From positions 50,040-114,039 of the forward strand of contig CAYGZQ010000003.1 in assembly GCA_964354375.1 (NCBI GenBank): 64,000 nt of DNA, given 5' to 3'. The translations under genes and the position numbers were made by a program. This stretch comes from an uncultured Planctomycetota bacterium (GTDB lineage Bacteria > JAJVIF01 > JAPKYR01). Below are positions 10,285 to 39,084 of the stretch, one piece after another (the stretch's first letter is position 1; each line of letters begins with the position of its first letter). The notes below the pieces were generated by a model. That model made no database searches. It was not told where the DNA came from and was given only the letters and a program-made list of their open reading frames with translations.

Positions 10285-10529
10285 GCTCCCGACTCTGTTT
10301 ACCCAGTCACGACAACATTTAGATACATCTTACGAGAGTTTCGATAGCAGCCCGGGTTTCCCGCTGCCTGTCCCCACCCTCCTGCATGCGCTTCCGATGA
10401 ACGTAAATATTATAACAGAATACATGGTTTGTTAAAAGAAAAGCGGCGTACATGTCCGCTTCCTGCAATAAGTGGGAAAAAAGCCCGGCGTCATGCCGGG
10501 CGGATCGGGATTCCATTGACTGTGCTGCT

Positions 10530-16000: not shown

Positions 16001-16182
16001 GGCTCAAATCTGTGCTACAGGTAGGTGTTGAGGATCGCGACTATGTGTACAGAATCAAGCACAGCGGGTATCGCTATCCGGATCCTAACCCTGAGTCCAA
16101 TCACCAGTACGTTGTTCCCCATTTCTACATTTGGAACTGGGAGCATCCGATGGATGGGTGGCAACAACGGTTGGACCCATAA
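13078..16182 (+). pseudogene. Lipoprotein with ~20 thrombospondin-type-3-like Ca-binding repeats and a C-terminal domain carrying a transglutaminase-like Cys motif. The reading frame is broken by an in-frame TAG at 13240..13242. Disrupted, or read through.
   Basis: ATG at 13078 encodes MCYLPRAGVLAFILLISLSFAC (lipobox). TAG lies 54 codons in. The same frame continues …PPDP*VPVEPEPRPQ…YRYRFEPEIPIEEP… into ORF 13294..16182, which starts at TTG and has no signal peptide. Repeats of DPDGDGLPNQEEPDNDNDGIPDE type. C-terminal LECDDYANILTRFMRDQGIDAESWYVSAG matches the transglutaminase Cys region. Confidence 0.5.
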
Positions 16183-18817: not shown

Positions 18818-21800
18818 CTACCGTCGCTTTTTCTTCTTCGGTTGCTTCCGAAATGAGAATGGGCGTCTTATCCCGTGAACCACTTTGCTGGCGGATTCCG
18901 CAACCGCGCCGCCGATGCTCGTGGCGCGGGATTTCGCCATCTCGAAATTCGCTTTGGCCTGGGCGTTGTGCGGGTCACAATCCAGCGCTTTCGCGAATTC
19001 GCGCGTCGCCTGAGTGTACAGAGCTTCCCGGAAGTAATAGCTTCCGATCGCGACGTGGGCTTCCGCGGAGTTCGGGGCTGTCGCCACGGCGAGCTCGTAT
19101 TCCTCCCTGGCCTTGTCCTTGTTGCCGCGCTCGTAGAGGATATCGGCCATACGAATGTGACCCTCTGCAAAGCCCGGAAACAGGTCGAGCGATTTCTGGC
19201 AGTGCCTCAGCGCGAGCTCGAGTTGGCCCTTGTCCTTGTATGCCTGCGCAAGCTGGAAATTCAGTGAGAAGTTGTCCGGCTTGATCTCCAGACCCTTCTG
19301 GAACTCGGCGATCGCCTTGTCGTACATCCCCTCTTCCATGTAGGCCGTGCCTTTGGTGACGTAGTGGTGTATCACCGGCGCGGCGGGGAATCTGCCGGGA
19401 AAAATCCGCTGTGTTTCGCCGACATCGCCAAACTGGATCACGACGCACGCCATGCTCTCCTTGATCGACGATCCTGCTCCCTTGTACCTGGAGCCTGCGA
19501 GCGAGATGATCCGCTCGCACGCCTCCTGCGTGTCTATCGTGCTTGTGACGCAGTTGCGGATTTCCACGTCCGACAACACGCGCCCGAGGTCCGATGTCCC
19601 CACGATGAGGACGTCTCCCGCCCTCAAATGTCTTTCGGCGGTCTCGACCTGCACCGTCAGCTCTTTCCCCAGCATGCGCTTCTCGTCGCCGCGTTTCATG
19701 AACGTGCGTATCGTGGCGCTGCGAAGCAGGTAGGCGAAGCAGGCCCCGACCTTGGCGAGGTAAAGGCGATTCTGGCTGATGGACGCGATAAGGAGCTCCG
19801 CGCCGATCGATCCTATCTTGTTGAGCCTGAAGGCCTCCTGGTTGACGATCCCGTTTGCCCTCTGCATCGCCGATATCGCGAGCTGGTTCGGGTCCTCAAG
19901 TATGTCGAGCCGGCTCAGAGACGAGTAGGAGTAGACCTGCTCGGCCTCTCTGAGCGCGAGGTCGGCGCACCTGAGGGCCTCATCGACCTGCGGGCTGATC
20001 CCCGATGCGACTCCGAACGCGCCTCGTATGCCGATGCTGGACGGGGGATAGCGCTGCGCAAACGTCATCCTCGATTCTTCCTCAGGTGGGGCCTCTTCCT
20101 CCGTCGACACCATCGCGAGGTAGCTCGAATTCCCGGGGATAAACGACAGGATCGATTCCTCGATCTCCGCCGCTGCTGCGCTTGCCTGGTAATCGTCCAG
20201 ATCCTCGATCAATTCCCCCCAGCTCGAATAGCGGGCCGTGTAGTCCTTTCTGAGCGCGCGCTCCAGAATCCGTCTCAGGTCGACTGATATCCCGGTGGCT
20301 TCGAGCCTTTCTCGCGGGTCCTCGTACACGTGCATCGCCGATATCTCGTGCGGCTCGCCGTGGAAGAGGTCGTGGCCGGTGATCAGGTAGTAGATCACAA
20401 GCGCCCACGCGTACACGTCCGACGCACCGGTCTGCTCGCCCAGCCCCGTTATCTGCTCCGGGCTGAGATACTCCGCGCGGTTGAGTTTCATGGGCGTGTC
20501 GTAGAAAACGTCTCTCTCGAAGCCCGACAGCTTTACTTTGAGCTGGGGTTTGGACACGACAAACGCGCTCTCCGGCGACAGACGCCCGTACACCTCGAAC
20601 CCTTCCGCCCTCAAATAGATCAGGGCCTCCGCGATCAGTCTTCCGACTTCGACCGCGTACCCCTCGCTCATCGGACCGTACTCGGCGACATAGTCGGCCA
20701 GAGTATGCGTCCTCAGCTCGCTAACGAAGAAATACGCGCCCTTATCGCGGCCGTGGTCGAGGACGCGGATAAGTCCCGGATGCTCGTATTCCGCCGCCAG
20801 CTTCATCCGCCCGTTCCAGGCCTCGTCCAGCTCATGGGTTTTGGGCACTCTGTAGAACCAGAGCATTACCGGGGTATCGGTGCCAAGGTGAGTTCCCGCG
20901 TACAGAACCAGGTCCTTCTCGGGTGACAGCCCGTATGCCCCTCCGATGTTCGTGAGCCGCTCTTCGAGACGGTATTTCCCCTTGATCGTCGTTCCCTGGT
21001 CTATCAGATGAATGTTGATGCCGCTGTCGGCGCTGCCGATAAGATGATCGATATCGTCGGCCAGATCGTCGTAACTCTGGTACCGCTGGAGCGGGTCCTT
21101 CTCCAGCATTTTGATCATGATGTCGTGGAAAACGAGGGGAATCTCATATCTTTCCTGGATTTTCGCCAGTGCTTCCGTCTTGATGTGGGCATCGAAGATG
21201 TCCTGGGGAAGGCCGTCGAAGAGGAAGTCGCCGGTCACTAGCCGGAACAGTATTCCCCCGAGAGCGTAGATGTCGGAGCGCTGGTCCACCGGAACATCGT
21301 CCTCGTCCAGCCACACTTCCGGCGACGCATACTGGTAACCCGTCGGCGGAACCCCGTATGTCTTGCGTATGAACCTCTCGGTCTCGTGCAGACGAAAGTC
21401 TTTGAGGAGCACCTCGTCGCCGCGCGGGTTGATGAGGATATGCTCCGGCCTGAGAGCGCCATGGGCCTCCAGAGATCCCTTGGTCTTGAGATAGGAGAGA
21501 GTGGCCAGCACCTTCCTGATAATCCTGAGAGCCTGTTCCGGCGCCAGCTTTTTTCGATCTTCGAGAACCGCAGCAAGAGAGGAGGTAACGTGCGTCTCCA
21601 CAACGTAGTACTGGTTCTTGTGCCATCCCTGGGCGATGAGATCGACCACGTGAGGGTGTTTCAGCTGCGCCCGCCCGTAGAGGTCCTTGTTGATCGCCCT
21701 GATGAAATCCTCTTCCCGCGACAGCTTATCGTCGTAGAATTTGATCGCGACGAACTTGTCGCGGCCGCGCTCGAGGGCCTTGTAGAGGCCGGAAAACTGG

Positions 21801-22687
21801 CCGCTGCCGAGCTCCTCCAGGACCTCGTAGCGGTTGTCCACGATCTCTCCCGCGAGGCTCCCCTCGGGTCGGGCCTTCTTGAAGCTGACCGCCGCCAGGG
21901 CGTACGCGACCGCCTCCTTGAACTCCGTCAGCGATGCGTAGCGCTTGGACGGATTCTTCTGCAGCGCCGCGATGAGAATCTCCTTTACCGCCATCGGAAT
22001 CTGCTTGTAGTACTCGATGTGCGGGGTGGCGTCGACATACACCTGCTGGTACCGGACCTTGGCGACATCGCTGTCATGGAAAAGCGGGAAACCCGTCAGC
22101 ATGTGATAAAGCACCATCCCGATCGAGTAGATGTCGGCCGCCTGCGTGATCTCTCCAATCCTGTGGATTTGCTCGGGTGATACGTACTTCGGGTCCTCCC
22201 ATCTCTTCCGCGGCTCCTCGTCCATCATCTCCATCGCTCGACCGACATACCAGTCGGCAAGCTTCACGTCGGTCAGCTCGTCATTAACAAGTATATTGTT
22301 CGGTTTGATCGCCAGGTGCGGGGGAAGTCCGATGTTGTATCCCGTTTCCAGCGCCTCGATCACTTTCAGCGTAATCGACAAGGCGCTGGTGAGGTCCACG
22401 GTCTCGTTCTCGATCAAATATTCTTTCAGGCTCATCGGCAGGAACTCGGTCGCAATCTTCATTCGGTCCGAATGCCTGCCGACCTCCCATACCGGCACCA
22501 GGTTGGGATGCTTGATCGTGCGAAGATTGTTCGCGACATTCTCGCATTCGTCGATGAACCCCTCGTGGACTCCGTAGGGTTCCTTGAAGATCTTTACGCA
22601 TGCCACGCGCGGGTCTTTGGGGTCTTTCCCCTTGTATACAAGGGCCGCTTCACTGCCTCGTATGCGGTCTACGGGTTCAAAAGGCAT
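18818..22687 (-). CDS. Multidomain signalling scaffold: three tandem kinase-like domains lacking catalytic residues, a degenerate PP2C-like domain and C-terminal TPR repeats
   Basis: Start is at the internal ATG 22687, which has an AGGAG RBS; the ORF-track extension to 23065 lacks support. Catalytic-loop equivalents are HLAIKPNN, HGALRPEH and YGRLSPES (no Asp). DFG equivalents are ADW, DFR and GFE. PP2C-like segment is LYLAKVGACFAYLLR…GDVLIVGTSDLG. TPR examples AYMEEGMYDKAIAEFQKGLEIKPDN. Confidence 0.8.
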   Translation of the reverse strand: MPFEPVDRIRGSEAALVYKGKDPKDPRVACVKIFKEPYGVHEGFIDECENVANNLRTIKHPNLVPVWEVGRHSDRMKIATEFLPMSLKEYLIENETVDLTSALSITLKVIEALETGYNIGLPPHLAIKPNNILVNDELTDVKLADWYVGRAMEMMDEEPRKRWEDPKYVSPEQIHRIGEITQAADIYSIGMVLYHMLTGFPLFHDSDVAKVRYQQVYVDATPHIEYYKQIPMAVKEILIAALQKNPSKRYASLTEFKEAVAYALAAVSFKKARPEGSLAGEIVDNRYEVLEELGSGQFSGLYKALERGRDKFVAIKFYDDKLSREEDFIRAINKDLYGRAQLKHPHVVDLIAQGWHKNQYYVVETHVTSSLAAVLEDRKKLAPEQALRIIRKVLATLSYLKTKGSLEAHGALRPEHILINPRGDEVLLKDFRLHETERFIRKTYGVPPTGYQYASPEVWLDEDDVPVDQRSDIYALGGILFRLVTGDFLFDGLPQDIFDAHIKTEALAKIQERYEIPLVFHDIMIKMLEKDPLQRYQSYDDLADDIDHLIGSADSGINIHLIDQGTTIKGKYRLEERLTNIGGAYGLSPEKDLVLYAGTHLGTDTPVMLWFYRVPKTHELDEAWNGRMKLAAEYEHPGLIRVLDHGRDKGAYFFVSELRTHTLADYVAEYGPMSEGYAVEVGRLIAEALIYLRAEGFEVYGRLSPESAFVVSKPQLKVKLSGFERDVFYDTPMKLNRAEYLSPEQITGLGEQTGASDVYAWALVIYYLITGHDLFHGEPHEISAMHVYEDPRERLEATGISVDLRRILERALRKDYTARYSSWGELIEDLDDYQASAAAAEIEESILSFIPGNSSYLAMVSTEEEAPPEEESRMTFAQRYPPSSIGIRGAFGVASGISPQVDEALRCADLALREAEQVYSYSSLSRLDILEDPNQLAISAMQRANGIVNQEAFRLNKIGSIGAELLIASISQNRLYLAKVGACFAYLLRSATIRTFMKRGDEKRMLGKELTVQVETAERHLRAGDVLIVGTSDLGRVLSDVEIRNCVTSTIDTQEACERIISLAGSRYKGAGSSIKESMACVVIQFGDVGETQRIFPGRFPAAPVIHHYVTKGTAYMEEGMYDKAIAEFQKGLEIKPDNFSLNFQLAQAYKDKGQLELALRHCQKSLDLFPGFAEGHIRMADILYERGNKDKAREEYELAVATAPNSAEAHVAIGSYYFREALYTQATREFAKALDCDPHNAQAKANFEMAKSRATSIGGAVAESASKVVHGIRRPFSFRKQPKKKKRR

Positions 22688-22837
22688 CAAACACTCCTGC
22701 GGAATGGTGTACCCACATCCGTCCGAATGATTATACCATTCAGACGCTTTTGAGGGCGCAAGTGTTCCCGACATATGGCTGTCGCGTAGCATGCGCGGGG
22801 TGGGGCTGTTGAAAAAACCTGTTTCGATGCCGAATCG

Positions 22838-22991
22838 GGTGGCACCCTCAGGCGGAAAGACTGCGCGAGCAGGCTTTCTGCCTGAGGGTGTTCGATCTAT
22901 TAATCCCTCTATCCATGAGGCATTCAGGTGATTGGTCCGGCACCCCCAGTCCGCCGCGGCGGACGAGGACTCGCCTGAGGGTGCCACGCCT
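22838..22991. promoter_or_regulatory. Divergent regulatory region with three copies of the motif GTGGCACCCTCAGGCG, one direct and two inverted
   Basis: Copies at 22838..22855, 22874..22890 (revcomp, 1 mismatch) and 22973..22991 (revcomp, exact 16-mer). The first two form a 17-bp-stem hairpin. Confidence 0.45.
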
Positions 22992-23045
22992 GATATGCCC
23001 TCCTTGCGCGAAATTGCGCTTTTTCGACAGCCCAGGACGCGCATG

Positions 23046-23075
23046 TTGCGCGTTTCCCGAATCATGTGATATACT
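23046..23075 (+). promoter_or_regulatory. Putative sigma70 promoter (TTGCGC…TGaTATACT, extended -10) for the radical SAM gene pair
   Basis: Extended -10 TGATATACT lies 38 nt upstream of the GTG start, with RBS AGGAGAGG. Confidence 0.4.
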
Positions 23076-23113
23076 CTGGTGGCTGTAAAAAAAATTTCAG
23101 GAGAGGAAAGAAA

Positions 23114-24619
23114 GTGACAGGGAATCCTTCGATCCTCTTTGTCGCGTTAGTACATCGCGAGTACTCACCGTTACGGTCTGCCTATTCCGGCATGGGGAAT
23201 ACCTATGAGCTTCTCCCGCACAAGTACGCGGTGCTTTCGCTTGTGGCGTGGCTGAGGGAGAACGGCTGCGACGGTCGCTATGTCTGGATTGAGAGCAACG
23301 ATCGCGAGGCAATAGCCCATGTTGAAAAGGCGATCGAGAGGTACAAGCCGGACGCGATCGGGATGAGCCTCACCACGGAAGAAGTGATCCCGCACTTCAA
23401 GATCGCCGGGGTTCTTAAGGAGAGGTATCCCGACCTGCCGATAATCGTCGGCGGGCCGCATCCGAGCGCACTTCCGGAGCATACGCTCGAGAACTTCCCT
23501 GCCGTCGATTACGTTGCGATAGGGGAGGGGGAGCGGACGCTCACCGAGTGGCTGTTCGCGATCTCTCTCGGGGGCAGAAGATCCAGGATGCGGGACATTC
23601 CCGGCCTGGCTTTTCGCGACGACGACGGCAGCATTGTCGTTACGTGTCCAAGAGAGAAAATCGAGAACATCAATGTCCTCCCGAATCCCGCCTACGATCT
23701 GATCCTCGATCCCTCGGATCCCTCCGAATCCAGACCCTGCGTGCCAATCGTCTTCTCGTACGGATGCCCCTTTTTCTGTACCTTCTGCTCCGCGGATCAC
23801 GGAAACTATCGCTTCGTCAGGCCCGTGAACGCCGTGAACCGGATTGAATGGGCGCAGAAGAAGTTCGGCGTGACCGATTTCGCCTTCTGCGACAGCTTCT
23901 GGCCGCCCTCGGGGAAGTGGCTCGACGAGTTCTGCAAAGAAATCGAAAAACGCCGGATCAGCATCAGGTTCCACTTCGAGACCCGTACGGGCGTCCTGAC
24001 TCCCAAGCAGTTCGAGAGGCTGAGGGATATCGGGGCGCAGGCGATAGCCGTAGGCGTCGAGTCCGGCGACTCCTTCGTCCTGAGGAGAATCAGGAAAGGG
24101 ATCACCGTCGATCAGGCCAAAAAGACATTCGACGCTCTCAACAGTGTCGGGATTTTCGCGCGCGCGCTTTTCATGTTCGGGAACCAGGGAGAAACCCTCG
24201 AGAGCATCCAGGCTTCAATTGACCTCATGCACAGGCTCAATGCTCCGGTTGTCACCCTCAGCGTTTTCCGTCCGCTGCCCGGCTCCGATGATTTCGGCCT
24301 GATTACCGACCGCGAGAAGGACTGGTGGATGCGCGGCGACGAATCCGGTCGATGGTGGGCGGGCGGAACTTATCCCTCCATCTGCGAGCTTTCCGTGGAA
24401 GACCTCCTGCTCCTGGCAAGGGAAGTGGGCCTGCGTTACCCGCTGCGGGCATCGTATGTCCTCCAGCACATCATCGGCGGAAGTCTTTCTATGAAATACC
24501 GCATGGTTGCCGCGCGAATCTTCCTTGCGCATCTCAGACGCTACCTCCTCGGCATTTCGGAGAGGTACGAGTTTCTGCGCACCCTCATTCGGGGCGCAAA
24601 GACGATGCTGAGAAGCTGA
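23114..24619 (+). CDS. B12-binding-domain radical SAM enzyme (class B radical SAM, methyltransferase-like), paralog 1
   Basis: CxxxCxxC cluster GCPFFCTFC. N-terminal cobalamin-binding-like domain (…DAIGMSLTTEEV…IIVGGPHPS…). Start is GTG 23114 with an RBS, or ATG 23066. Confidence 0.8.
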   Translation: MTGNPSILFVALVHREYSPLRSAYSGMGNTYELLPHKYAVLSLVAWLRENGCDGRYVWIESNDREAIAHVEKAIERYKPDAIGMSLTTEEVIPHFKIAGVLKERYPDLPIIVGGPHPSALPEHTLENFPAVDYVAIGEGERTLTEWLFAISLGGRRSRMRDIPGLAFRDDDGSIVVTCPREKIENINVLPNPAYDLILDPSDPSESRPCVPIVFSYGCPFFCTFCSADHGNYRFVRPVNAVNRIEWAQKKFGVTDFAFCDSFWPPSGKWLDEFCKEIEKRRISIRFHFETRTGVLTPKQFERLRDIGAQAIAVGVESGDSFVLRRIRKGITVDQAKKTFDALNSVGIFARALFMFGNQGETLESIQASIDLMHRLNAPVVTLSVFRPLPGSDDFGLITDREKDWWMRGDESGRWWAGGTYPSICELSVEDLLLLAREVGLRYPLRASYVLQHIIGGSLSMKYRMVAARIFLAHLRRYLLGISERYEFLRTLIRGAKTMLRS

Positions 24620-24728
24620 CCATCCCCGGTTTTCCCACAGCATTCCTGCGAATCCTTCTCTTCGCATGCTCGTCATAAGGCTGCCCAGACCCCTGCGTGT
24701 GCGCCGTGCTATACTCGATACTAACCTG

Positions 24729-26222
24729 ATGGACGAGAAGCCCACGATCCTCTTCATCGCGCTCATCCCTCGCGACTACTCGCCCTACTACGCCAAAACC
24801 TACGGCATGGAGCGGTCGTTCGACCTCATGCCGCACAAGTACGCCATTCTCACATTGGTGTCGTGGCTGAGGGAAAACGGCTGCGAGGGGCACTATGTCT
24901 GGGTCGATGGGCCCGACGAGGAAGGCCTCGGGACGATCGACAAGGCCATCGAGCTCTGCAATCCCGATGCCCTCGGGTTCAGCCTCACCACCGAGGAAAT
25001 GGCTCCCCATTACCGGCTTATCGAGCTTCTGAAGCAGAGGCATCCCGACCTTCCGGTGATCATCGGCGGACCACATGTGACGGCGGAGCCCGTGCATTCT
25101 CTCGATCTCTTTCCGCTTGTCGATTTCGTTGCCGTAGGCGAAGGGGAGCGGACTCTGACGGAACTCCTCCACAGGATCGCAGCGGGTCACGGCGATGATG
25201 AATTAACGTCCACCAGGAGCATCGGTTTCCGCGACAGCTCGGGAAGGATCGTCATCACTGCGCCAAGGGAAAAAATCAACGACATCAACATCCTCCCGGA
25301 CCCGGCGTACGATCTGATAACGGAGTCCGACCAGCCCGCCGATCGGCGCTCGGCCTTCCCCATAATCTGCTCCTACGGCTGCTACTTCTTCTGCTCGTTC
25401 TGTTCGGTCGAGCACGGGAACTACCGGTGCGTCGCGCCCGAGAGGGTCGTGGATCGCATATATCGGGCTCAGAGGCAGTACGGGATCGAGTACTTCGCAA
25501 TACGCGACAGCTTCTGGCCGCCGACGCGTGAATGGCTGGACAGGTTCTGCAGCGAAGTCGAGAAGCGTAAGCTGAAAATCCAGTTTCATTTTCAGACCCG
25601 CGCGGGGACGCTCACAGACGAGCACATGAGCCGATTGAAGAAGATCGGCGCGCAGGCGATCGGAATCGGCGTCGAGGCGGGCGATCCCGCCATTCTGAAA
25701 AGCATCCGCAAGGGCATCACGGTGAACATGGCGCGGAAAACCGTCGCGGCCCTCAATCAGGCGGGGATTTTCTCGATCACGTTTTTCATCTTCGGGAACA
25801 AGGGGGAGAATCCCCGGACCATACAGGCGTCGGTCGATCTCGCTCGCGAGATGAACCCATCGATGTCTCTCTTCCATGTCCTCTCTCCGCTTCCCGGCGC
25901 TGAGGCGTTCAAATCGGTTCCGGACGGTCGGAAGGACTGGTGGTTGAACAGCATTTCCATGCCGCCTTCTATCTGCGACGTTGAGCCCGAGGGACTGGGA
26001 CATCTCGCCAATGAGGCGTTTCTCAGGTACCCGCTAAGATGGTCGTACTTCCGCCAGCATGTCGTCGGGGCCAGACTGTCCCCCGATTTCCGCCGTATCG
26101 CAAGGCGCATCTTCTTTGTGCACGTGAGAAAATACATCCTGGGGATTTCCGAGCGCTACGGTCCGACGAGAAATCTCATACGCTGGGTCAAATCGATGCT
26201 GCGCCGGTCCGGTAGCTGCTAG
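24729..26222 (+). CDS. B12-binding-domain radical SAM enzyme, paralog 2
   Basis: GCYFFCSFC motif; collinear with paralog 1 along its whole length; start MDEKPTILFIAL. Confidence 0.8.
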   Translation: MDEKPTILFIALIPRDYSPYYAKTYGMERSFDLMPHKYAILTLVSWLRENGCEGHYVWVDGPDEEGLGTIDKAIELCNPDALGFSLTTEEMAPHYRLIELLKQRHPDLPVIIGGPHVTAEPVHSLDLFPLVDFVAVGEGERTLTELLHRIAAGHGDDELTSTRSIGFRDSSGRIVITAPREKINDINILPDPAYDLITESDQPADRRSAFPIICSYGCYFFCSFCSVEHGNYRCVAPERVVDRIYRAQRQYGIEYFAIRDSFWPPTREWLDRFCSEVEKRKLKIQFHFQTRAGTLTDEHMSRLKKIGAQAIGIGVEAGDPAILKSIRKGITVNMARKTVAALNQAGIFSITFFIFGNKGENPRTIQASVDLAREMNPSMSLFHVLSPLPGAEAFKSVPDGRKDWWLNSISMPPSICDVEPEGLGHLANEAFLRYPLRWSYFRQHVVGARLSPDFRRIARRIFFVHVRKYILGISERYGPTRNLIRWVKSMLRRSGSC

Positions 26223-26241
26223 CTTTTTCGTCTTCGAAAAA

Positions 26242-26350
26242 GTAGCTGCTACCGGAGGATCACTGCGCCGGTAGCAGCTACCTTACCGCTCGCTGTGCTC
26301 GCGGCAAGGATAGCAGCTACCGGCAATACTACCGGAGGATCACTGCGCCG
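26242..26350. repeat. Intergenic repeat cluster: a perfect 14-bp inverted repeat GTAGCTGCTACCGG/CCGGTAGCAGCTAC, extra copies of the GTAGCTGCTA core, and a 22-bp direct repeat TACCGGAGGATCACTGCGCCGG (x2)
   Basis: Read directly between the paralog-2 stop (26222) and the ccdA start (26387); a TATAAT box at 26360 follows. Confidence 0.6.
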
Positions 26351-26386
26351 GACACATGCTATAATCGCCCGACCTGAGGTGACCTC

Positions 26387-27352
26387 GTGCAAGAAACACA
26401 GACGATGACATATCCCCTGGCGTTCCTGGGAGGACTCGTCAGCTTCATCACCCCGTGCGTGCTTCCGCTCGTGCCGGTCTACCTGAGCATTCTCTCCGGC
26501 ACTTCGTTCAACCAACTGACCGGCAGGGGCGGCGAGCTTACCGCGCAGGAACGCTCGGACATCCATAAGCGCGTGATTTTCAATGCGCTCGCGTTCATCA
26601 TCGGATTCTCGATCATCTTTATCGCGTCCGGAATCGTGGCGGGAAGCCTCGGCGAGTGGCTCAAGAATTTTCAGGGCAAGTACGGTCCCTCCGTCACAAA
26701 CTGGCTGCTTCTCATCTTCGGCGTTGTTCTTGTGGTGCTCGGACTCAACATGGCGGGCATCTGGAAACCCCGCTTTCTCAACGCGGAGGCCAGGTTCCAG
26801 TTGCAGAAGGGGAAATTCGGAGTCATCTCCTCCGGCATCGTCGGCGCCGCATTCGCTTTCGGATGGACCCCCTGTATCGGTCCGATCCTGGCCATAATCT
26901 GGGGGGTCGCCGCCGAAAGCGGATCACGTCTCACCGGCGGCCTGCTGCTCGCGACATACTCGCTCGGCCTTGCCGTCCCGTTCTTTCTCTCGGCTTTGTC
27001 GGTGAACGGCCTTCTCGCCTTCACGGGCAGAATGAAGCGGCATTTCCACACAGTGGAGATCGTGATAGGGACTATTCTTATTATTCTCGGACTGGGGATG
27101 GGCTACTTCGGTGGGTACGGCATGAAGACCGGTGTGGACGGGCTCACCCCGATCAGGCAGAACATGGGCTGGCTGTGGACATACTCCACCGAGCTCGAGC
27201 AGGGTCTGTCCCAACAGCCTCAAGGCTCCGAGCAGACCGAGGAGCCCGCCGTTTGGAAGGAGGAGATCGAGGCCACACAGGAAAGCGCGCAGCCTGTAGA
27301 GGACAAACCTGTTGTCGGCGGAAACGCCCCGCCTGCTGCGTCGGGCCCTTAG
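26387..27352 (+). CDS. ccdA: Cytochrome c-type biogenesis / thiol-disulfide transporter CcdA (DsbD family) with a Q/E-rich C-terminal tail
   Basis: FLGGLVSFITPCVLPLVPVYLS signature; multiple TM helices. Confidence 0.75.
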   Translation: MQETQTMTYPLAFLGGLVSFITPCVLPLVPVYLSILSGTSFNQLTGRGGELTAQERSDIHKRVIFNALAFIIGFSIIFIASGIVAGSLGEWLKNFQGKYGPSVTNWLLLIFGVVLVVLGLNMAGIWKPRFLNAEARFQLQKGKFGVISSGIVGAAFAFGWTPCIGPILAIIWGVAAESGSRLTGGLLLATYSLGLAVPFFLSALSVNGLLAFTGRMKRHFHTVEIVIGTILIILGLGMGYFGGYGMKTGVDGLTPIRQNMGWLWTYSTELEQGLSQQPQGSEQTEEPAVWKEEIEATQESAQPVEDKPVVGGNAPPAASGP

Positions 27353-27472
27353 TCTCACTCGCAGTCGGCTTGGGTTCGGAGACGAAAAATCAGCCCGGGA
27401 CATCGCCCCGGGCTTTTCGATATGGAGAATATCATGGAGATAGGTGCTTGCTGTCCTTATGGATGGCGGCCA

Positions 27473-28687
27473 CTATTCATCGACGGGCTGGAGGACAATG
27501 TCGATCACGGTGAACTGGTCCGGGAAGACAACCACCGGCCCCTGGTGGACATAGGGCTGGAACTTGTCCTTCATACACTCAAGCTGATACTTGCCCGGCT
27601 TCACCGGATCGAACCTGTAAAGCCCCTTGGGGCTTGTCACTTCCCACATGACGAGCGGCGGAGCGTCTGGATCGTCGGGATTCGGGTGGATTAACCTCAC
27701 AATCGCCTCGGGAACAGGCTTTCCTTCAGGATCCGAGACCTTCCCCTCAACGCCGCCGCAATTCGCGGGCTCGAGGTGGAAGTTGATCATGTTCTGTCCC
27801 GGATGGACGTCCCATAATCGATGTCCCACATTGAAGCATGGAGCCTTGGCCCACAACTGATGCGGTCCCAGCGGGATGGGCGGGAACAGATAGACCCCGT
27901 GTTTGTTGGTGAAGGTCTCGATTTTCTTAGCGCCCGGCACGCCGATCGGCTCAAGTTCGACCAGGGCGTGGGGAATCGGCTTGGGAGCCTGCATCGGACC
28001 TGTCACTACAAATCCGCCCACGATGCCGAAATCGAGCTTCGCAGGGAGGAACAGGTTCTTCTGCACCTCGCCCTCGGCGATCACGAAGACCTGGTCCTTC
28101 GCAGTCGCATGTTCCGGGGCAAAGGCGAGGACAAGCCCCGGTCCGGCGGGCGCATCGGGAACGTTGTAGTAACCGTTTTCGTCCGTGAAATCAGCCCCGA
28201 AATTCTCGGTCTGGTTGAACACGACAACAAAGGCCTTCTTTACCGGGCCAAGTTGATCATGCACGAATCCCCAGACCGTGCCGCGATCGATCTCAGGATC
28301 GGGATCGCCGAATTCCTGCGCGTTTCGCGCCGCCAGCACAACGGTGGTCTTGTACACGACCTCCCCGTCGATTCGAGCTTCAAGTGCAGTTTCGACCTCT
28401 TCATCGACGCCGTAGATTGTGAATGAGCCGTCTTCCCCGGTCCATCCGGCGATCTCGCCGTCGATGTAGATTTCCGCCCACGCCAGAGGGTCGCCGTTGG
28501 AGTCGGTCAGGACCCCGCTGAATGTGCCGTCGGCGGCTGTCCTCGTCCCCTCGCCGGTGTCGGATGACGCGACGACCTCAGACGCTCCGGGCGCGGCTGG
28601 GCTGCTCGCGCCGGTGCAGCCCAGTATTCCCCAAAGCGACCATAGTGCGAGAAGGAGGAGGACTGATGTTGCGGTTCGACTTATCAT
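27473..28687 (-). CDS. Lipoprotein with four tandem carboxypeptidase-regulatory-like (CarboxypepD_reg) domains
   Basis: Start MISRTATSVLLLLALWSLWGILGCTG with RBS GGAGAGG. Repeats of GxVxDxxGxPLxxAxIxI…GxYxF type. Confidence 0.65.
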   Translation of the reverse strand: MISRTATSVLLLLALWSLWGILGCTGASSPAAPGASEVVASSDTGEGTRTAADGTFSGVLTDSNGDPLAWAEIYIDGEIAGWTGEDGSFTIYGVDEEVETALEARIDGEVVYKTTVVLAARNAQEFGDPDPEIDRGTVWGFVHDQLGPVKKAFVVVFNQTENFGADFTDENGYYNVPDAPAGPGLVLAFAPEHATAKDQVFVIAEGEVQKNLFLPAKLDFGIVGGFVVTGPMQAPKPIPHALVELEPIGVPGAKKIETFTNKHGVYLFPPIPLGPHQLWAKAPCFNVGHRLWDVHPGQNMINFHLEPANCGGVEGKVSDPEGKPVPEAIVRLIHPNPDDPDAPPLVMWEVTSPKGLYRFDPVKPGKYQLECMKDKFQPYVHQGPVVVFPDQFTVIDIVLQPVDE

Positions 28688-28885: not shown

Positions 28886-30124
28886 CTAGATGATTACGAG
28901 TTCCGCCTGGAGTGCGCCGGAGGCTTCGAGAGCCTGGAAGATGGCGACGATGTCCCTCGGCGTCGCGCCCAGGGCATTCAGGGCCGTCACGAGGTCCGCC
29001 GACGTGATGCGCACGAACTGAGCGGGCGTTTCCTGGACCTCCACTCCGGCCCTGGGAATGGCCATGGAGAATCCGCCGCTGTAGGGTGGGGGCTGTCCGG
29101 CCTCGAAGGATTGAGTGACGGTAATCGACAATGCGCCGTGCGCAATCGCCACCGGAATTATCTGCACGCCCGCGCCCATGACTATCGTGCCGGTTCGCTC
29201 GTTGATGACCACCTTGTTCGCAATATCCGGTTGGATCGTAAGGTTCTCGATCTCCGAGATGAACCGCACGGTATCGTTTCTATACTCGTCGGGCACCCTG
29301 ATATTCACGCTTGCCGGGTCCTGGGCTTCCACGAGACGGATCGACGGGAATGCGGTCACGATGGCGTCCCTGAGACGGATCGCAGTGGTGAAATCAGGAT
29401 TCATCAGGACGAGAGTCACAATGTCGTCCTGCACGAAGCTGAAGTCGACCTCTGTTTCCACGTACGCCCCGTTAGGTATTCGGCCCACTGTGAGGAAATT
29501 CGTCTGACGTCGCGCTCCCGCCCCACCTGCCGCTCCGCCGGCGGTGCCGAATCCGGCAAGGCTTACCGGGCCCTGCGCGACCGCATAAATCTCGCCGTTC
29601 GCAGCCCTAAGCGGGGACATGATCAATGTTCCGCCCTGAAGGCTCTGGGCGTCGCCCATCGCCGATACGGTGATATCCACCGTGTCTCCCTCGCGCGCGA
29701 ACGCGGGGAGGTCACAGGTGATCATCACGAGCGCGAAGTTCTTGACCTTGATCCCGGTCGGATCGGTCGGCAATCCGGCGCGCTCGAGCAAGTTGGCGAT
29801 CGCCTGCGCTGTAAAGTCGACGGAAGACGCGTTGTCGCCGGTACCGGCAAGCCCGGTGACAAGGCCGATGCCGTAAAGCTGGTTCCCGCGCACCCCAAGA
29901 ACGCGGGCGATATCCTTCACCCTGACAAGCGGCGCCTCCGAGTAATAGATCGGTTCTGCGAACTCCCATACGTCGGGCGTCTGACCGGTGTCACTGGCGG
30001 CAGCATCCGGCGCAGGCGCGGCAGGAGGCGTTTCCTGTCCGAATGCAGCCAGGGGAGCCGCTCCCAGGATGATTATCAGAGTCAACCTGATGAGAGTGTC
30101 TGCTATCTGTTTGATCGAGCACAT
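28886..30124 (-). CDS. flgI: Flagellar P-ring protein FlgI
   Basis: RVKDIARVLGVRGNQLYGIGLVTGLAGTGD matches the FlgI signature; signal peptide from the internal start MCSIKQIADTLIRL. Confidence 0.85.
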   Translation of the reverse strand: MCSIKQIADTLIRLTLIIILGAAPLAAFGQETPPAAPAPDAAASDTGQTPDVWEFAEPIYYSEAPLVRVKDIARVLGVRGNQLYGIGLVTGLAGTGDNASSVDFTAQAIANLLERAGLPTDPTGIKVKNFALVMITCDLPAFAREGDTVDITVSAMGDAQSLQGGTLIMSPLRAANGEIYAVAQGPVSLAGFGTAGGAAGGAGARRQTNFLTVGRIPNGAYVETEVDFSFVQDDIVTLVLMNPDFTTAIRLRDAIVTAFPSIRLVEAQDPASVNIRVPDEYRNDTVRFISEIENLTIQPDIANKVVINERTGTIVMGAGVQIIPVAIAHGALSITVTQSFEAGQPPPYSGGFSMAIPRAGVEVQETPAQFVRITSADLVTALNALGATPRDIVAIFQALEASGALQAELVII

Positions 30125-30176
30125 TGCGTTGTCGAGTAGAGTCCTCTTTCCTGCTGTCCGTCGAAAGCTTCCGACG

Positions 30177-30800
30177 TCAGAAGAAGAAATTGAATATTCT
30201 GGACAGGATTCCGTCGTGCTGGCGGTCGGCGATGATTCCCTCGCCCTGGTAGAGGACTTCCATGTCGGCGATCTGGCTCGAAAGAATCGTGTTGTCGATC
30301 GTGACATCGTCCGGACGGATCACGCCTCGGATGGTCAGCTCAGCGGAATCCTTGGCAATCGTGATCGAACGCAGACCCTCGATGACGAGATTTCCGTTGG
30401 GAAGGATGTCCACAACCGTCGCGGTGACCTGGGTGGTGAACGTCCCGGCGGTCGACACTCTTCCGTCGCCCTGGAATGTCTCCTTCGGCGTGAAGGTCAG
30501 GTCTTCGATGGGGGCGATGGTCTCGGGCAGGTCGGCTATCCATTGCAGAAAACCCTTGACCGAGATCTGACCGTCGGTATTGAGGCTCTTGTCGGTTTCT
30601 GTCGACGCGCGGTTGGTCGCGGAGGTTGTTTCGGAGATCAGGATCGTGACAAGATCGCCGATCTGGGCCGCCCTGTCGCACGTTATCAGGTCGCAACCGT
30701 CCTCGTCGAAAAGGCTCGTGGCCGACGAGGGCAGGGGGACAAGAAGTCCCAGGACGATTATCATTGAGAAGATTAAATAGCGCATGTTTGCTTTCCTCAT
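30177..30800 (-). CDS. flgH: Flagellar L-ring protein FlgH
   Basis: Size, signal peptide, IGDLVTILISETTSA motif and position between flgA and flgI. Confidence 0.75.
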   Translation of the reverse strand: MRKANMRYLIFSMIIVLGLLVPLPSSATSLFDEDGCDLITCDRAAQIGDLVTILISETTSATNRASTETDKSLNTDGQISVKGFLQWIADLPETIAPIEDLTFTPKETFQGDGRVSTAGTFTTQVTATVVDILPNGNLVIEGLRSITIAKDSAELTIRGVIRPDDVTIDNTILSSQIADMEVLYQGEGIIADRQHDGILSRIFNFFF

Positions 30801-30820
30801 TGAACGAATAATGTGCCCAT

Positions 30821-31564
30821 CTAATCCTGAATATTTATTTCCGCCCTTGATTGTCCTGTGACAACGGCCGTTATGATCGCGTTGGAATCGGGGTTCCTCA
30901 CACGGATTTCCTCGCCGAGACGTCCCGAGTCGAGCGCGATGCCGTGCAGCGTGACCGTTGCGGCACCGATCGGAACGACGACGGTCACCGCATCGCCCCG
31001 AACCACCAGGATCGGCAGTTCCACCATGGCGCTTGTCAGCACCCGGCCCGCGGGGATGTCAGTGCGAGCCGCGAGGCCTGCGATCTCCTCGAAGCTCCGA
31101 TAGACGTCACCTGACGGAAGCTCCTTCACGTTGACGATCGTTTCCTCGACATCGTCTTCCGTCAGGACCTGCCCGCGCTCGATTTCTCTCGCGGCGGCAA
31201 CCGCGGGGACCGTGACTTTCAGATACGGGCCTGGATCGAAGCGAAGATACAGCGTGCCGTCGACGCGAACTTCCACCGAGACAGCGCCGATGTCCTTGAT
31301 GCCGTTGGGAGTGCGCTCGAGGACCGCCTGCACCTCGATCAGTCCGTCGCTGTAGACCGTTATGTCGCTGGGAGTCTGGTCGATCTCGACCGTGCAACCT
31401 GCAGAGGCCCATGGATCGCTTGTGAGCACCAGGTTCCGGGCGGCCTCCAGAAGCCAGCCCGAGTTAAGGGTCCGGGAACCGGACGCGTTCACCCGGCTGA
31501 GTCCCGTCAGCGCGCAGATCGTAACAAGTGCCGCCATGAATCTTATGAAAGGCTGACTGGTCAT
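30821..31564 (-). CDS. flgA: Flagellar basal-body P-ring formation protein FlgA
   Basis: Signal peptide, C-terminal SAF-like region (RVLTSAMVELPILVVRGD…IRVRNPDSNAII) and conserved gene order. Confidence 0.7.
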   Translation of the reverse strand: MTSQPFIRFMAALVTICALTGLSRVNASGSRTLNSGWLLEAARNLVLTSDPWASAGCTVEIDQTPSDITVYSDGLIEVQAVLERTPNGIKDIGAVSVEVRVDGTLYLRFDPGPYLKVTVPAVAAAREIERGQVLTEDDVEETIVNVKELPSGDVYRSFEEIAGLAARTDIPAGRVLTSAMVELPILVVRGDAVTVVVPIGAATVTLHGIALDSGRLGEEIRVRNPDSNAIITAVVTGQSRAEINIQD

Positions 31565-31830
31565 CTTGAATCATGCAAACTCTCCGGCGGTCCGCCGGAG
31601 CAGTGCTGGAAATATCAAAGGGGAGGGGAGAAGAGTTCCTTTAATTGTTTCTGTGGTGACGTGGGCGCCGCGCCTCCGGAACAGCCCGCTTCGCAACCCT
31701 CTCTTGCGAAGAAGCCGGATAATTTTTGCCCCTTGCGGCCGGGCCTCATCGCCCTTTATGGACTCTTCCCCCTCCCTGTGAAAGTCACTCGTCGTCTCTT
31801 GCTTTCGTCTTCACCTCCCCACGGTGAGAA

Positions 31831-32619
31831 TTATCGCGCAAGATTGTTGGAGATACTCAGGAGCTGATCCGCCACGCTCACAGCGCGGGAGTTGGTCTCA
31901 AACGCGCGCTGGGCGATGATGAGCTGGATCAATTCCTCGACGATTGACACATTGCTGGCCTCAATGAAGCCCTGGGCGATCTGGCCGAAACCTTCCTCGC
32001 CGGGAGTTCCGGTGACCGGGTCGCCCGAGGCGTCGGTCTGCCGGTAAAGGTTCTGGCCTATGGTTTCCAGACCTGCAGGGTTCTGGAACCTGACCAGTTG
32101 TATCTGCCCTACCTGCGTGAGGGTCGTGTCGCTGCCCACCTGCACCGACACGGTGCCGTCGCTCGCCACTTCGACACGCACGGCATCGGCCGGGATCGTG
32201 ATGGGCGGCTCGATATAGAGCCCGTCCGCGGTCACCACGTTACCCTCGGAGTCGAGCTTGAACGTTCCGTCACGCGTGTAGGCCGCCGATCCATCCGCCA
32301 GCGTGACCTGGAAAAACCCGTCGCCGCTGATCATCAGGTCCAACGGGTTCCCGGTCGACTGTGCGGCGCCAAGGAGGAAGATTTTCTGGGTCGCGATCGG
32401 CCTTACACCGTGACCAACCCTGAGGCTCGTGGGAACCATCGAACCGGTCAGGGTGCTCTGACCGGCCCTGCGGTAGGTCTGGTAGAGAAGGTCCTGGAAA
32501 TTCAGCCTGTCCCGCTTGAAGCCGGGAGTGTTCGCGTTCGCGATGTTATTCGCGATAACGTCGGTGTTCATCTGCTGGGCCTGCATGCCCGTTGCCGCCG
32601 TGAATAACGCTCGAATCAT
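31831..32619 (-). CDS. flgG: Flagellar basal-body rod protein FlgG
   Basis: MIRALFTAATGMQAQQMNTDVIANNIANANTPGFK N-terminus; C-terminal rod-protein motif. Confidence 0.85.
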   Translation of the reverse strand: MIRALFTAATGMQAQQMNTDVIANNIANANTPGFKRDRLNFQDLLYQTYRRAGQSTLTGSMVPTSLRVGHGVRPIATQKIFLLGAAQSTGNPLDLMISGDGFFQVTLADGSAAYTRDGTFKLDSEGNVVTADGLYIEPPITIPADAVRVEVASDGTVSVQVGSDTTLTQVGQIQLVRFQNPAGLETIGQNLYRQTDASGDPVTGTPGEEGFGQIAQGFIEASNVSIVEELIQLIIAQRAFETNSRAVSVADQLLSISNNLAR

Positions 32620-32664
32620 GCTTAACTGCCCTCGCTTAGTGCCGCAACCGCATCCATCCGCGTC

Positions 32665-32763
32665 CTAGTACGGGACGAACGCGGTTGCCAGGTAGAGAAC
32701 CAGCAGAACGACCCACAGACATAGGTCCCCAAGGTCGTCCCGCATTCGTCGGAGCATCAACAT
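32665..32763 (-). CDS. Putative 32-aa hydrophobic peptide (MLMLRRMRDDLGDLCLWVVLLVLYLATAFVPY) between flgF and flgG
   Basis: ATG preceded by GGAGGAA. It is below the ORF-track size cut-off and lies in the only intergenic gap of the rod/ring operon. Confidence 0.35.
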   Translation of the reverse strand: MLMLRRMRDDLGDLCLWVVLLVLYLATAFVPY

Positions 32764-32854
32764 CGGGTTCCTCCTGTATCTGTTCTGTTCTCGCTAATCC
32801 TCATTCTCCCCCCAACCCGGTCGACTGATGTTGATTATTGATTTACAGATCCAC

Positions 32855-33646
32855 CTAACCCGGTAACCTGCCCAGCTCGTTGCTTACGCGATTGAGACTC
32901 TGGTTAAACATATCGACAGCTCTCGCCGCAGCTTCATAGGACCGTTGCGCCGAAATGAGCTGCACGAGGGAATCTATGGCGTTCACATTGCTGCCCTCGA
33001 TCACACCCTGCTCGATTGTGGAGTTGAGCGCGTCGAAGGGGGGCGCCGAGGTCGGGTCCACAGTTCTGAAAAACGTCGAGCCCTCTTTCTCGATCAAGCT
33101 TATGTCGGGGAATTCGACGATCCTGAGCATGCCCACCGGGAGACTGTCCTGAGTTATCTCGCCGTTCTGCCTGATGATTATCGGCGAGGGCGACGTGATT
33201 AAGATGGGCTGACGGTTAGAGCCCTGGACCGCATAGCCGGACTGGTTCACGATCCTGCCCTGGCTGTCCAGCATGAAGCTGCCGGCTCGCGTGTAGCGCT
33301 CTCCCTGCGGAGTATCGACGACGAAGAAGCCCGGACCCTTGAGGTAGAGATCGAGCGGATTGCCGGTGGTCTTGGGCACACCCTGGGAGAAATCAACGTA
33401 TTCGCTTTCAGCGATGGGCCCTCCGAGGTTCATCCATCCCACCCTGGGCGGGATGGCCTTCATCCGCAGAGGCGGTTCGGGCGGAGACTCGAGCCGCGAC
33501 ATCAGCATGTCCCCGAACGACCTCATCGCGATTCGGTCGCCCTTGAACCCGTCGGTGGAGACGTTCGCAAGGTTGTTCGCCACCGTCTCAACTTCATGAG
33601 CGCGGTAGCGCATTGCGTTCGCAGCAGCGTAAAGACCTCGAAGCAT
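32855..33646 (-). CDS. flgF: Flagellar basal-body rod protein FlgF
   Basis: Start is the internal Met MLRGLYAAANAMRY (rod-protein N-motif, ANNLANVSTDGFK); the ORF-track N-extension is discarded. Confidence 0.75.
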   Translation of the reverse strand: MLRGLYAAANAMRYRAHEVETVANNLANVSTDGFKGDRIAMRSFGDMLMSRLESPPEPPLRMKAIPPRVGWMNLGGPIAESEYVDFSQGVPKTTGNPLDLYLKGPGFFVVDTPQGERYTRAGSFMLDSQGRIVNQSGYAVQGSNRQPILITSPSPIIIRQNGEITQDSLPVGMLRIVEFPDISLIEKEGSTFFRTVDPTSAPPFDALNSTIEQGVIEGSNVNAIDSLVQLISAQRSYEAAARAVDMFNQSLNRVSNELGRLPG

Positions 33647-33779
33647 AGGAGAACACCGGACCTGGGGGCGATTCTTCTCGCCCATTCTGTTTATCGGAAA
33701 GAGAGTGGGGGGCTGAACGAGGAACGGGATGCAAGAGGCGGGAAAAGTGGACCCGAATGGCCTCCGGCTTCCGATGAAA

Positions 33780-34184
33780 CTACCTTCTTCTGCGACGCAT
33801 CTGAAGACGTGGTTTTCTTTGGCTACCGCTCGCCCAGATCTCGGCCTTGGACCGATCGCCGTATTTGTTCTGCATGGAAGCGTGTCGTTTCTTCGCCGAC
33901 GCGGAGCCGGCAATGTCGTAAATGAGATAAACCGGAAGGCCCCAGAAGTGAAAGACCGAGAAGAAGGCCCACCAGAAATACATGTTGCCGTGCTTCCGAC
34001 CCAGGATTTCGGCGAACACCCTGGTAAGCAGGAACCATGTTGCGGAGCCGAAGATCGCGAGCACGGGCCAGGCGGCGTTGTCGAAATCGAGCGGATGGTA
34101 CAGGCGAGCTTTGTTTATCAGCCAGTAGACCGGATGATAGTAGATCATGTAGATATAAATGAAACGCCAGACCGAGTACCACAT
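33780..34184 (-). CDS. Small multi-pass membrane protein (~134 aa), unknown function
   Basis: Start MWYSVWRFIYIYMIYY with RBS AGAGGA; 3-4 predicted TM helices. Confidence 0.5.
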   Translation of the reverse strand: MWYSVWRFIYIYMIYYHPVYWLINKARLYHPLDFDNAAWPVLAIFGSATWFLLTRVFAEILGRKHGNMYFWWAFFSVFHFWGLPVYLIYDIAGSASAKKRHASMQNKYGDRSKAEIWASGSQRKPRLQMRRRRR

Positions 34185-37906: not shown

Positions 37907-38067
37907 CGCCTTGACTCCTTCTCTTCTGATTCCGCCAAAGAGACTACTGGAAGATACAGATCCCTGGCCAACCAATAATATCATCTTTCTCCTCCGGTTC
38001 ATGAACTAATAGGATTGATTTTCCGCCGATTTTGACCGTTTTCCTGCTACCCTGTACAATCGGCGCT

Positions 38068-38872: not shown

Positions 38873-39084
38873 GCGTCCGGGAGCGTTTTAGTGTCGGATT
38901 GAACGTCCGATATTGGCAGAAGGGGTATTTGTGGCATATAATGTTCCCGACAAGGGGCGATGGTTCGATCCATCGTCGCATTTTCGGCATCATAACTAAT
39001 GCATGACCCTTGGCATGCTCTTTGAGTTTTAGTCTTTATAACCTGACATTATTATATTATTATATCATTCAAAAGGAGCGCAAC

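Follow-up and report, generated by a model that had tools for sequence, protein, structure and literature searches.

Background

Radical S-adenosylmethionine (SAM) enzymes that depend on cobalamin catalyze reactions that are chemically demanding, and for most of the subfamilies no substrate is known. Two adjacent genes encoding proteins of this type, here named rSAM-A and rSAM-B, are found in a stretch of 64,000 nucleotides from an uncultured Planctomycetota bacterium (NCBI GenBank assembly GCA_964354375.1, contig CAYGZQ010000003.1, positions 50,040 to 114,039 of the forward strand; hereafter referred to as the window). They are followed on the same strand by ccdA, a gene for a thiol-disulfide electron transporter, and preceded by a divergently oriented gene for a large pseudokinase scaffold. 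An earlier note on this DNA had regarded the three same-strand genes as a tight unit built around a notable duplicated pair of class B radical SAM methyltransferases, with no assignable pathway. The question raised by the locus is what kind of enzymes these two proteins are, and whether the order rSAM-A, rSAM-B, ccdA reflects a common function or a common history.

The reading that we favour, with a probability of roughly 60%, is that rSAM-A and rSAM-B are orphan paralogs of the class B radical SAM enzymes, that they are expressed as separate units, and that the proximity of ccdA is an inherited gene order. Besides removing the ccdA "operon" as a tempting but weak lead, the analysis delimits a compact orphan subfamily by sequence motifs, by the relationships of its paralogs, by a confident model of the structure and by the mapping of its genomic context, in which the pseudokinase scaffold is the only consistently linked neighbour.

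Results and discussion

Domains, motifs and fold of the two proteins

The two proteins are collinear paralogs of about 500 residues, as had been described earlier: they exhibit 52% identity and 69% similarity from end to end, with a single gap of eight residues. The N-terminal cobalamin-binding domain and the CxxxCxxC motif attributed to both were also confirmed. The B12-binding domain (PF02310) scores 67.4 bits in rSAM-A and 57.6 bits in rSAM-B against a gathering score of 32.1, and the Radical_SAM domain (PF04055) 74.8 and 71.7 bits, respectively, against 29.5. Apart from these two generic domains, Pfam reveals only a sub-threshold match to Radical_SAM_N2, and no family-specific Pfam domain of any characterised enzyme was found in either protein. 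The three cysteines of the motif (C218-x3-C222-x2-C225) are present in both proteins and invariant among 37 sequences of the family to which they belong.

A model of rSAM-B generated with AlphaFold2 (AF2) from the alignment of these 37 sequences is confident (predicted local distance difference test score, pLDDT, 88.7; predicted template modelling score, pTM, 0.84). It comprises a five-stranded Rossmann fold, a β-hairpin (residues 165-168 and 174-176), a partial barrel and a helical C-terminus, and the same layout has been described for OxsB, TsrM and TokK (PMC13331322). Foldseek comparison of the model with the PDB retrieved TsrM, MgmA, CysS, OxsB, AprD4 and TokK, with template modelling (TM) scores of ~0.6 and 17-20% identity, none of them being prominent; the E-values range from 1e-19 to 1e-22 for TsrM, MgmA, CysS, OxsB and TokK, and the highest target-normalised TM score (0.71) belongs to MgmA. 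Apart from AprD4, every one of the top structural matches belongs to class B. When the family profile was compared with the sequences in the PDB, OxsB was found to be the best match (92 bits) and AprD4 the second (85 bits). Judging from the domains, the motifs and the model, rSAM-A and rSAM-B are both intact and are predicted to be radical SAM enzymes of the cobalamin-dependent kind (class B, Rossmann type).

The likeness to OxsB, TsrM, TokK, CysS and MgmA extends from the B12-binding Rossmann domain with its β-hairpin, through the partial barrel that bears the CxxxCxxC motif, to the helical C-terminal domain. The generic GGPH motif and the threonine that follows strand β3 are also retained in the family. 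As regards base-off binding of cobalamin without a histidine ligand, the DxHxxG motif is absent, as in those enzymes, but an invariant His36-Lys37 pair is found at the start of helix 1. On the other hand, sequence identity and profile scores are as low as given above, and rSAM-A and rSAM-B are not surrounded by a biosynthetic gene cluster. According to alignments made with hidden Markov models (HMMs), the position of Asn186 of OxsB is occupied in the family by a small residue (T/V/C/A), and that of Trp76 of TokK by Glu or Asp. AprD4 (6fd2), a radical SAM diol dehydratase, is comparably compact (~450 aa) and shows a target-normalised TM score of 0.66-0.69, but it makes no use of cobalamin and acts in an aminoglycoside cluster, and its sequence alignment with the family is limited to the radical SAM core and the C-terminal part (query residues 183-400). 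The basic character of the last 65 residues (net charge of ~+11) was considered as a clue to the substrate and dropped, as it is only modestly above the average of +7 in distant relatives.

Comparison with characterised families

For the equivalog test, the NCBIfam HMM scores of rSAM-A and rSAM-B were compared with the cut-offs of the respective models. No equivalog reaches its cut-off for either protein, as all scores are at most ~134 bits and the cut-offs lie between 282 and 750. The values for rSAM-A and rSAM-B are 134 and 117 bits for the ApyD model (cut-off 750), 133.0 and 133.8 for BchE (TIGR02026, 481), 120 and 101 for HpnJ (TIGR03471, 578), 104 and 96 for rSAM_ocin_1 (TIGR03975, 282), a C-methyltransferase of ribosomally synthesized and post-translationally modified peptides (RiPPs), 89 and 49 for HpnR (TIGR04367, 650), and 85 and 93 for the ladderane-associated radical SAM protein (360). 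BchE, tight clustering with which had been named earlier as the result that would speak against an uncharacterised family, shares the top of the list of characterised models with one other and, like our proteins, is a class B enzyme made of one polypeptide of about this length; its score is nevertheless far below the cut-off, which speaks against such clustering, and its specific C-terminal Pfam domain is not reported in rSAM-A or rSAM-B. In agreement with the earlier note, the two proteins appear to be orphans within a known class, claimed by no characterised class B family.

Size, distribution and signature of the family

In a search of 5.8 billion protein clusters, the family was found to comprise ~55 clusters of proteins of 490-505 aa, with 44-58% identity, and the next matches exhibit at most 33%. 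Clustering at 50% leaves essentially a single full-length representative of the family in a set of 1.84 billion proteins; the surrounding superfamily is large, with 16,036 proteins at E < 1e-30. Among species-representative genomes, the family occurs only in metagenome-assembled genomes (MAGs) labelled "Planctomycetota bacterium" or "bacterium". The TGT protein of the window is equally isolated, with 61-73% identity to members of the clade and then ~52% to proteins from assorted phyla, and from these two observations the host appears to be a deep-branching lineage. Within the genomes and proteins searched, the subfamily is small and restricted to this one uncultured bacterial lineage, of which it is a signature. 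A literature search for B12-binding radical SAM proteins in Planctomycetes retrieved only papers on archaeal glycerol dialkyl and glycerol monoalkyl glycerol tetraether (GDGT/GMGT) lipids and on B12 radical SAM lipid modifiers such as GrsA/B and Gmm, with no link to the family, and no sequence-similarity-network surveys of class B were found.

Judged against ~80 more distant relatives, the family is set apart by three features: an invariant (P/S)HK at the start of helix 1, where the distant relatives have PLGL, a DS(F/L)WPP motif in place of their DD(T)F, and an insert of ~20 residues after strand 1.

Phylogenetic history of the paralogs

The relationships within the family were studied with a bootstrapped neighbour-joining tree, in which the related loci and proteins are designated by L and P numbers. 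The A-type clade, comprising rSAM-A of the window, L006, L008, L005, P0004 and P0009, was recovered in 91% of bootstraps and the B-type clade in 65%, while A and B as exclusive sisters were recovered in 0%. At least three clades exist beyond A and B, and the family is divided into no fewer than four old paralog clades. The A and B proteins of one genome are 45-54% identical, and B orthologs from different genomes are 61-67% identical; in view of the tree and of these values, rSAM-A belongs to an old paralog clade and did not arise as a recent tandem copy of rSAM-B. Orthologs of the A type are 50-59% identical, i.e. they evolve faster than those of the B type, and rSAM-A keeps all the family-invariant residues. 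Single MAGs were found to carry two or three family copies on separate contigs (e.g. LacPavin_49_9, with L010, L012 and L020), and in L100 an A-type gene occurs alone in an oxidative-stress neighbourhood, with no B-type gene, kinase or ccdA nearby. As to the order of the genes, the ancestral state was probably a pseudokinase gene divergent from rSAM-B, itself followed by ccdA, with rSAM-A present between the kinase and rSAM-B only in a subset of genomes.

Nor does the presence of a pair stand out in the way that had been suggested, since 19 of 64 loci of distant class B relatives (considered with ~10 kb of flanking DNA on each side) carry from two to seven class B paralogs. The superfamily also includes fusion proteins with two to four modules. 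Seven class B paralogs are crowded within 13 kb in L046 (1823-14282), from a Deltaproteobacteria MAG, and among P0121-P0131, which are distant class B relatives, giant fusions reach 2331 aa and contain four radical SAM modules.

Promoters and transcription units

An extended -10 motif, TGNTATAMT, occurs eight times in the window, compared with 0.55 occurrences expected, and one copy is located ahead of each of the three genes. The copies are mostly found just upstream of gene starts, and because the same positions are kept in related genomes, the motif looks like the main promoter signal of the lineage. A scan with the sigma-70 and terminator consensus revealed nothing above shuffled sequences, and the promoter signal is seen only with the extended -10 pattern. 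The predicted box of rSAM-B is located at -21 or -22 of the ATG in the window, L006, L005, L008 and L091, and due to this short distance the mRNA of rSAM-B is predicted to be nearly leaderless. Ahead of ccdA, a separate TGNTATAAT box and the Shine-Dalgarno sequence GAGGTGA are present in eight of eight loci. The start codon of rSAM-A is GTG, with a CAGGAG Shine-Dalgarno sequence 10 nt ahead; for rSAM-B, a longer open reading frame (ORF) from position 24666 has an extra N-terminus that is absent from every homolog.

A predicted hairpin with a stem of 20-21 bp overlaps the stop codon of rSAM-B. The region 26205-26390 folds at -88 kcal/mol, compared with -62 kcal/mol for shuffled sequences (z = -6.2). 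The hairpin is formed by the palindromic GGTAGCWGCTACC, of which four copies are present in 26205-26351 and none elsewhere in the window, and the hairpin region has undergone an 80-nt tandem duplication in 26249-26351 (26249-26271 being identical to 26329-26351), of which L006, 95% identical to the window, has a single copy. A match of this hairpin to mir-51, the sole Rfam match in 22500-27600, was rejected as spurious, and neither a cobalamin riboswitch nor another RNA element was detected by Rfam in that region. On the strength of these predictions, rSAM-A, rSAM-B and ccdA are more probably transcribed separately, each from a consensus-like promoter of its own, than as parts of one unit.

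Conservation of gene order and the position of ccdA

The identification of ccdA as the third gene on the same strand is well founded, as its product passes the threshold of the DsbD_TM domain (PF02683) with 63.2 bits against 27.1. It resembles CcdA/DsbD in this signature and in both catalytic TPCxxP cysteines (C24 and C163), which are invariant among seven orthologs, and differs in a variable, acidic C-terminal tail of ~85 residues and in having no thioredoxin-like or cytochrome c maturation partner among the annotated neighbours.

A search for the same three-gene arrangement in other genomes, as had been recommended in the earlier note, revealed that it recurs in L006, L005 and L008; both A and B are also present in L097. 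More often, a lone B-type gene precedes ccdA (L011, L089, L090, L091, L093, L095/L096). Insertions of unrelated genes are tolerated: in L097 the interval from A to B holds a Schlafen/AlbA_2 gene and a ParA-like gene, and in L008 two ORFs without known identity separate B from ccdA. In L010 the kinase and rSAM-B genes are kept and ccdA is absent. In L005 a PKD gene is located between the kinase and A; because it is flanked by direct repeats of ~190 nt, the sequence suggests a repeat-mediated secondary insertion. Two tandem copies of this repeat lie upstream of the PKD gene (L005, 4777-5135) and one diverged copy downstream (8138-8333). The insert of L097 (2236-4430), which encodes a Schlafen/AlbA_2-HATPase_c_4 protein and a ParA-like AAA_31 protein, may represent a small cassette, either mobile or concerned with defence.

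The conserved block is broader than the three genes, extending to a PAS histidine kinase on one side and to flgI, flgH, flgA, flgG and flgF on the other. All five flagellar genes are present in the block of L011, L089 and L090, and in L091 flgI, flgH and flgA are present up to the end of the locus. Across the block, divergence is of the same order (67-76% identity for FlgI, 56-63% for ccdA and 61-67% for rSAM-B), and as the unrelated flagellar genes are syntenic at comparable divergence, the adjacency of ccdA carries little functional weight. Outside this setting, no ccdA gene was found near the other paralog clades or near the distant class B relatives (0/64 loci).

The own promoters, the hairpin after rSAM-B, the tolerated insertions, the loss of ccdA in L010, the broader synteny and the absence of ccdA elsewhere lead us to conclude that rSAM-A, rSAM-B and ccdA probably do not form an operon or a co-transcribed unit, and the tight unit proposed earlier is not upheld. 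The position of ccdA beside rSAM-B would then be a gene order inherited within a family-level clade and not the sign of a mechanistic partnership, an interpretation that we hold to be somewhat better than even; ccdA itself most likely encodes a general membrane thiol-disulfide electron transporter.

Proposed reaction

By analogy with characterised members of the class, the [4Fe-4S] cluster held by the CxxxCxxC motif would reductively cleave SAM to yield a 5'-deoxyadenosyl radical, which would abstract a hydrogen from a substrate carbon that is not activated. The cobalamin bound in the N-terminal Rossmann domain would then most likely deliver a methyl group, since no reaction is commoner in the class than methylation. 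rSAM-A and rSAM-B would differ in the site on which they act or in their substrates. Of the description as class B radical SAM methyltransferases, it is the class architecture that has been borne out, and we infer methyl transfer from class membership; the class B enzymes also include cyclases, ring-contracting enzymes and dehydratases.

Evidence against the favoured reading

Several observations weigh against the interpretation of orphan enzymes in separate units with an inherited neighbour. The promoters and the hairpin are sequence predictions. ccdA follows rSAM-B in eight of nine testable loci, at ~60-65% protein identity between the genomes, and the core of kinase, rSAM-A, rSAM-B and ccdA is intact in L005 even though its flanks, with the histidine kinase and the flagellar genes, have been lost; because of the eight loci and of a core that has outlasted the loss of its flanks, some selective link between rSAM-B and ccdA is conceivable. 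The constant adjacency of the pseudokinase and a radical SAM gene may likewise reflect a real functional tie. Since (P/S)HK replaces PLGL and DS(F/L)WPP replaces DD(T)F, the cofactor handling or the chemistry of the family may differ from that of the characterised members. With respect to methyl transfer in particular, the class has members that do not methylate, such as BchE and OxsB, and AprD4, whose structure is similar, works without cobalamin.

The pseudokinase scaffold as a possible functional partner

The divergent gene does encode a pseudokinase scaffold, as had been stated, for all three kinase-like domains are without the HRD aspartate (HLAIKPNN, HGALRPEH and YGRLSPES). The 1415-aa ORF (18818-23065, minus strand) is over-extended at the N-terminus and overruns its own promoter box, the true start being near 22687. 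The scaffold is the only neighbour present in every testable locus, including those from a reverse search seeded with the scaffold, and the gene that accompanies the B-type gene, or the A-type gene where there is one, most constantly is that of the pseudokinase and not ccdA. In most relatives the copy beside the pseudokinase is of the B type. A family radical SAM gene divergently adjoins it in the window, L006, L010, L011, L021, L089, L090, L091, L092, L093, L095/L096 and L097. Orthologs of the scaffold are 72-78% identical in genomes whose TGT and rSAM-B are only ~61-73% identical, an unusually strong constraint for a catalytically dead protein of 1289 aa.

One may suppose on these grounds that the scaffold and the B-type (and A-type) enzyme form a functional pair, in which the enzyme modifies the scaffold or a protein recruited by it, or the scaffold controls the enzyme. 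The pairing persists in L010 despite the loss of ccdA, and the sole intervening gene, that of L005, is the repeat-flanked PKD gene that looks like a secondary insertion. C-methylation of a protein has precedents in MgmA and Mmp10, both of which act on methyl-coenzyme M reductase, and MgmA, a protein-modifying class B enzyme, heads the list of target-normalised TM scores, although the structural similarity to it is no better than that to enzymes acting on small molecules. Each gene has, however, a compact promoter of its own, and what remains of the divergent spacer ranges between 134 and 426 bp and has neither a motif nor an operator in common. All these loci come from one family-level clade in which the histidine kinase and the flagellar genes are syntenic too, the neighbours of the other paralog clades are quite different, and these genomes are rich in large repeat proteins, so that adjacency to one of them is unsurprising. 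We regard such a pair as unlikely, with about one chance in seven in our estimation.

Several paralogs in fact adjoin giant repeat proteins (PKD/PQQ, HEAT, TPR). The idea that each paralog modifies the giant protein next to it was set aside, because 12 of the 50 ORFs of the window that were kept (≥80 aa) exceed 700 aa and adjacency by chance is therefore likely.

Alternatives involving CcdA, peptides or housekeeping pathways

An extension of the pair, to which we give still less credence, is a lineage-specific functional module of the scaffold, the B-type enzyme and CcdA, in which, for instance, the radical SAM protein would carry out a radical-type modification of the scaffold or of a client protein. 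If such a module existed, the invariant His-Lys in place of PLGL could point to an unusual, possibly His-on, cobalamin environment in a radical SAM enzyme.

It seems just as doubtful that rSAM-B, with or without rSAM-A, and CcdA take part in one process, either the modification of a tetrapyrrole or heme for c-type cytochromes, the maturation of which requires reductant delivered by CcdA, or that of an envelope component that needs thiol reduction in the periplasm. The location of ccdA directly downstream and on the same strand in eight of nine loci, among them the rearranged L005, agrees with this view, as does the rank of BchE, a tetrapyrrole enzyme, among the best-scoring models, but the BchE score is no better than those of ApyD or HpnJ. 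The ccdA gene is moreover equipped with its own promoter and Shine-Dalgarno sequence and separated from rSAM-B by the hairpin, in L008 also by two unrelated ORFs; it is missing from L010 and from the surroundings of the other paralog clades and the 64 distant relatives, and there is no cytochrome c maturation or thioredoxin-like gene among the annotated neighbours. Radical SAM enzymes are cytoplasmic and CcdA serves the periplasm, and a full-text search found no paper that links CcdA to cobalamin-dependent radical SAM enzymes.

Far less probable is the maturation of a RiPP by the pair, in the manner of PoyB/PoyC, ApyD or the TIGR03975 C-methyltransferases, for which the gene of the precursor would have to have escaped recognition. 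Some RiPP clusters typically contain class B paralogs in tandem, and the models of ApyD and rSAM_ocin_1 rank near the top in NCBIfam, but with scores far under their cut-offs. Just as the earlier note had observed that neither a precursor peptide nor a pathway gene is nearby, no conserved small ORF was found in the intergenic regions of the window and the relatives compared; the small ORFs that do occur there are Arg/Pro-rich read-throughs of the kind usual in high-GC DNA and look like artefacts of base composition, and the spacers between the genes vary in length and content among relatives. There is no gene for a protease, a transporter or a leader-binding protein (RiPP recognition element, RRE), and in the loci examined none of the paralogs is accompanied by a biosynthetic cluster, a precursor peptide, a riboswitch or a pathway gene, every paralog being alone in a different housekeeping-type context.

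Finally, diverged copies of a housekeeping class B enzyme (BchE, HpnJ/HpnR or the ladderane-associated protein) with pathway genes elsewhere in the genome are largely refuted: the name "anaerobic Mg-protoporphyrin IX monomethyl ester cyclase" given to several family members by the automated annotation of JGI is a generic transfer at the COG level, the equivalog scores stay at or below ~134 bits against cut-offs of 360-750, Pfam shows generic domains only, a sharp identity gap separates the family, with its own motif set, from everything else, and no photosynthesis or hopanoid genes are found among the annotated ORFs of the window.

The wider consequence of the orphan family that we favour here awaits a substrate, and its interest would rise if the pairing with the pseudokinase or the His-Lys motif proved functionally meaningful.

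Features of the window

The coordinates of the genes, motifs and predicted signals discussed above are collected in Table 1.

Table 1. Genes, motifs and predicted expression signals of the rSAM-A/rSAM-B locus and further copies of the extended -10 motif (positions in the window)
Feature	Position	Strand	Description
Pseudokinase gene	18818..22687	-	1289 aa; three pseudokinase domains, PP2C-like region, TPR repeats; divergent, upstream of rSAM-A
Pseudokinase predicted box	22738-22730	-	TGGTATAAT; conserved motif
rSAM-A predicted extended -10 box	23067..23075	+	TGATATACT; kept as TGATATACT or TGGTATATT ahead of A-type genes
rSAM-A	23114..24619	+	501 aa; predicted cobalamin-dependent (class B) radical SAM protein, A-type paralog clade
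rSAM-A CxxxCxxC motif	23765-23788	+	GCPFFCTFC
rSAM-B predicted extended -10 box	24707..24715	+	TGCTATACT; 22 nt ahead of ATG
rSAM-B	24729..26222	+	497 aa; predicted cobalamin-dependent (class B) radical SAM protein, B-type clade
rSAM-B CxxxCxxC motif	25380-25403	+	GCYFFCSFC
Predicted hairpin	26208..26256	+	20-21-bp stem; overlaps rSAM-B stop codon
ccdA predicted extended -10 box	26357..26365	+	TGCTATAAT
ccdA	26387..27352	+	321 aa; DsbD_TM-type thiol-disulfide electron transporter; PF02683 match
Other TGNTATAMT copy	10409-10417	-	
Other TGNTATAMT copy	39059-39067	-	
Other TGNTATAMT copy	41228-41236	+	
Other TGNTATAMT copy	50459-50467	+	

The flagellar basal-body block of the window (flgI, flgH, flgA, flgG and flgF; 28886-33913 and 35360-38002, both on the minus strand) is located beside a secretin gene, and with 473 aa its FlgI ORF extends too far at the N-terminus, judging from the ~408 aa of relatives. 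Six ORFs of 760-960 aa are without a Pfam match (1143-3524, 7612-10284, 13294-16182, 44102-46387, 53988-56369 and 57082-59790); large proteins without known identity are frequent in this lineage, and in relatives they often adjoin the radical SAM paralogs. A single ORF (42574-43575, plus strand) fuses IspF (YgbB, 2-C-methyl-D-erythritol 2,4-cyclodiphosphate (MEcPP) synthase) to an RNase H-like (RVT_3/RNase_H) domain, which is an unusual combination. It is followed on the same strand by a bacterial RNase P RNA of class A (43604-43994), which matches the model over its full length with 245 bits.

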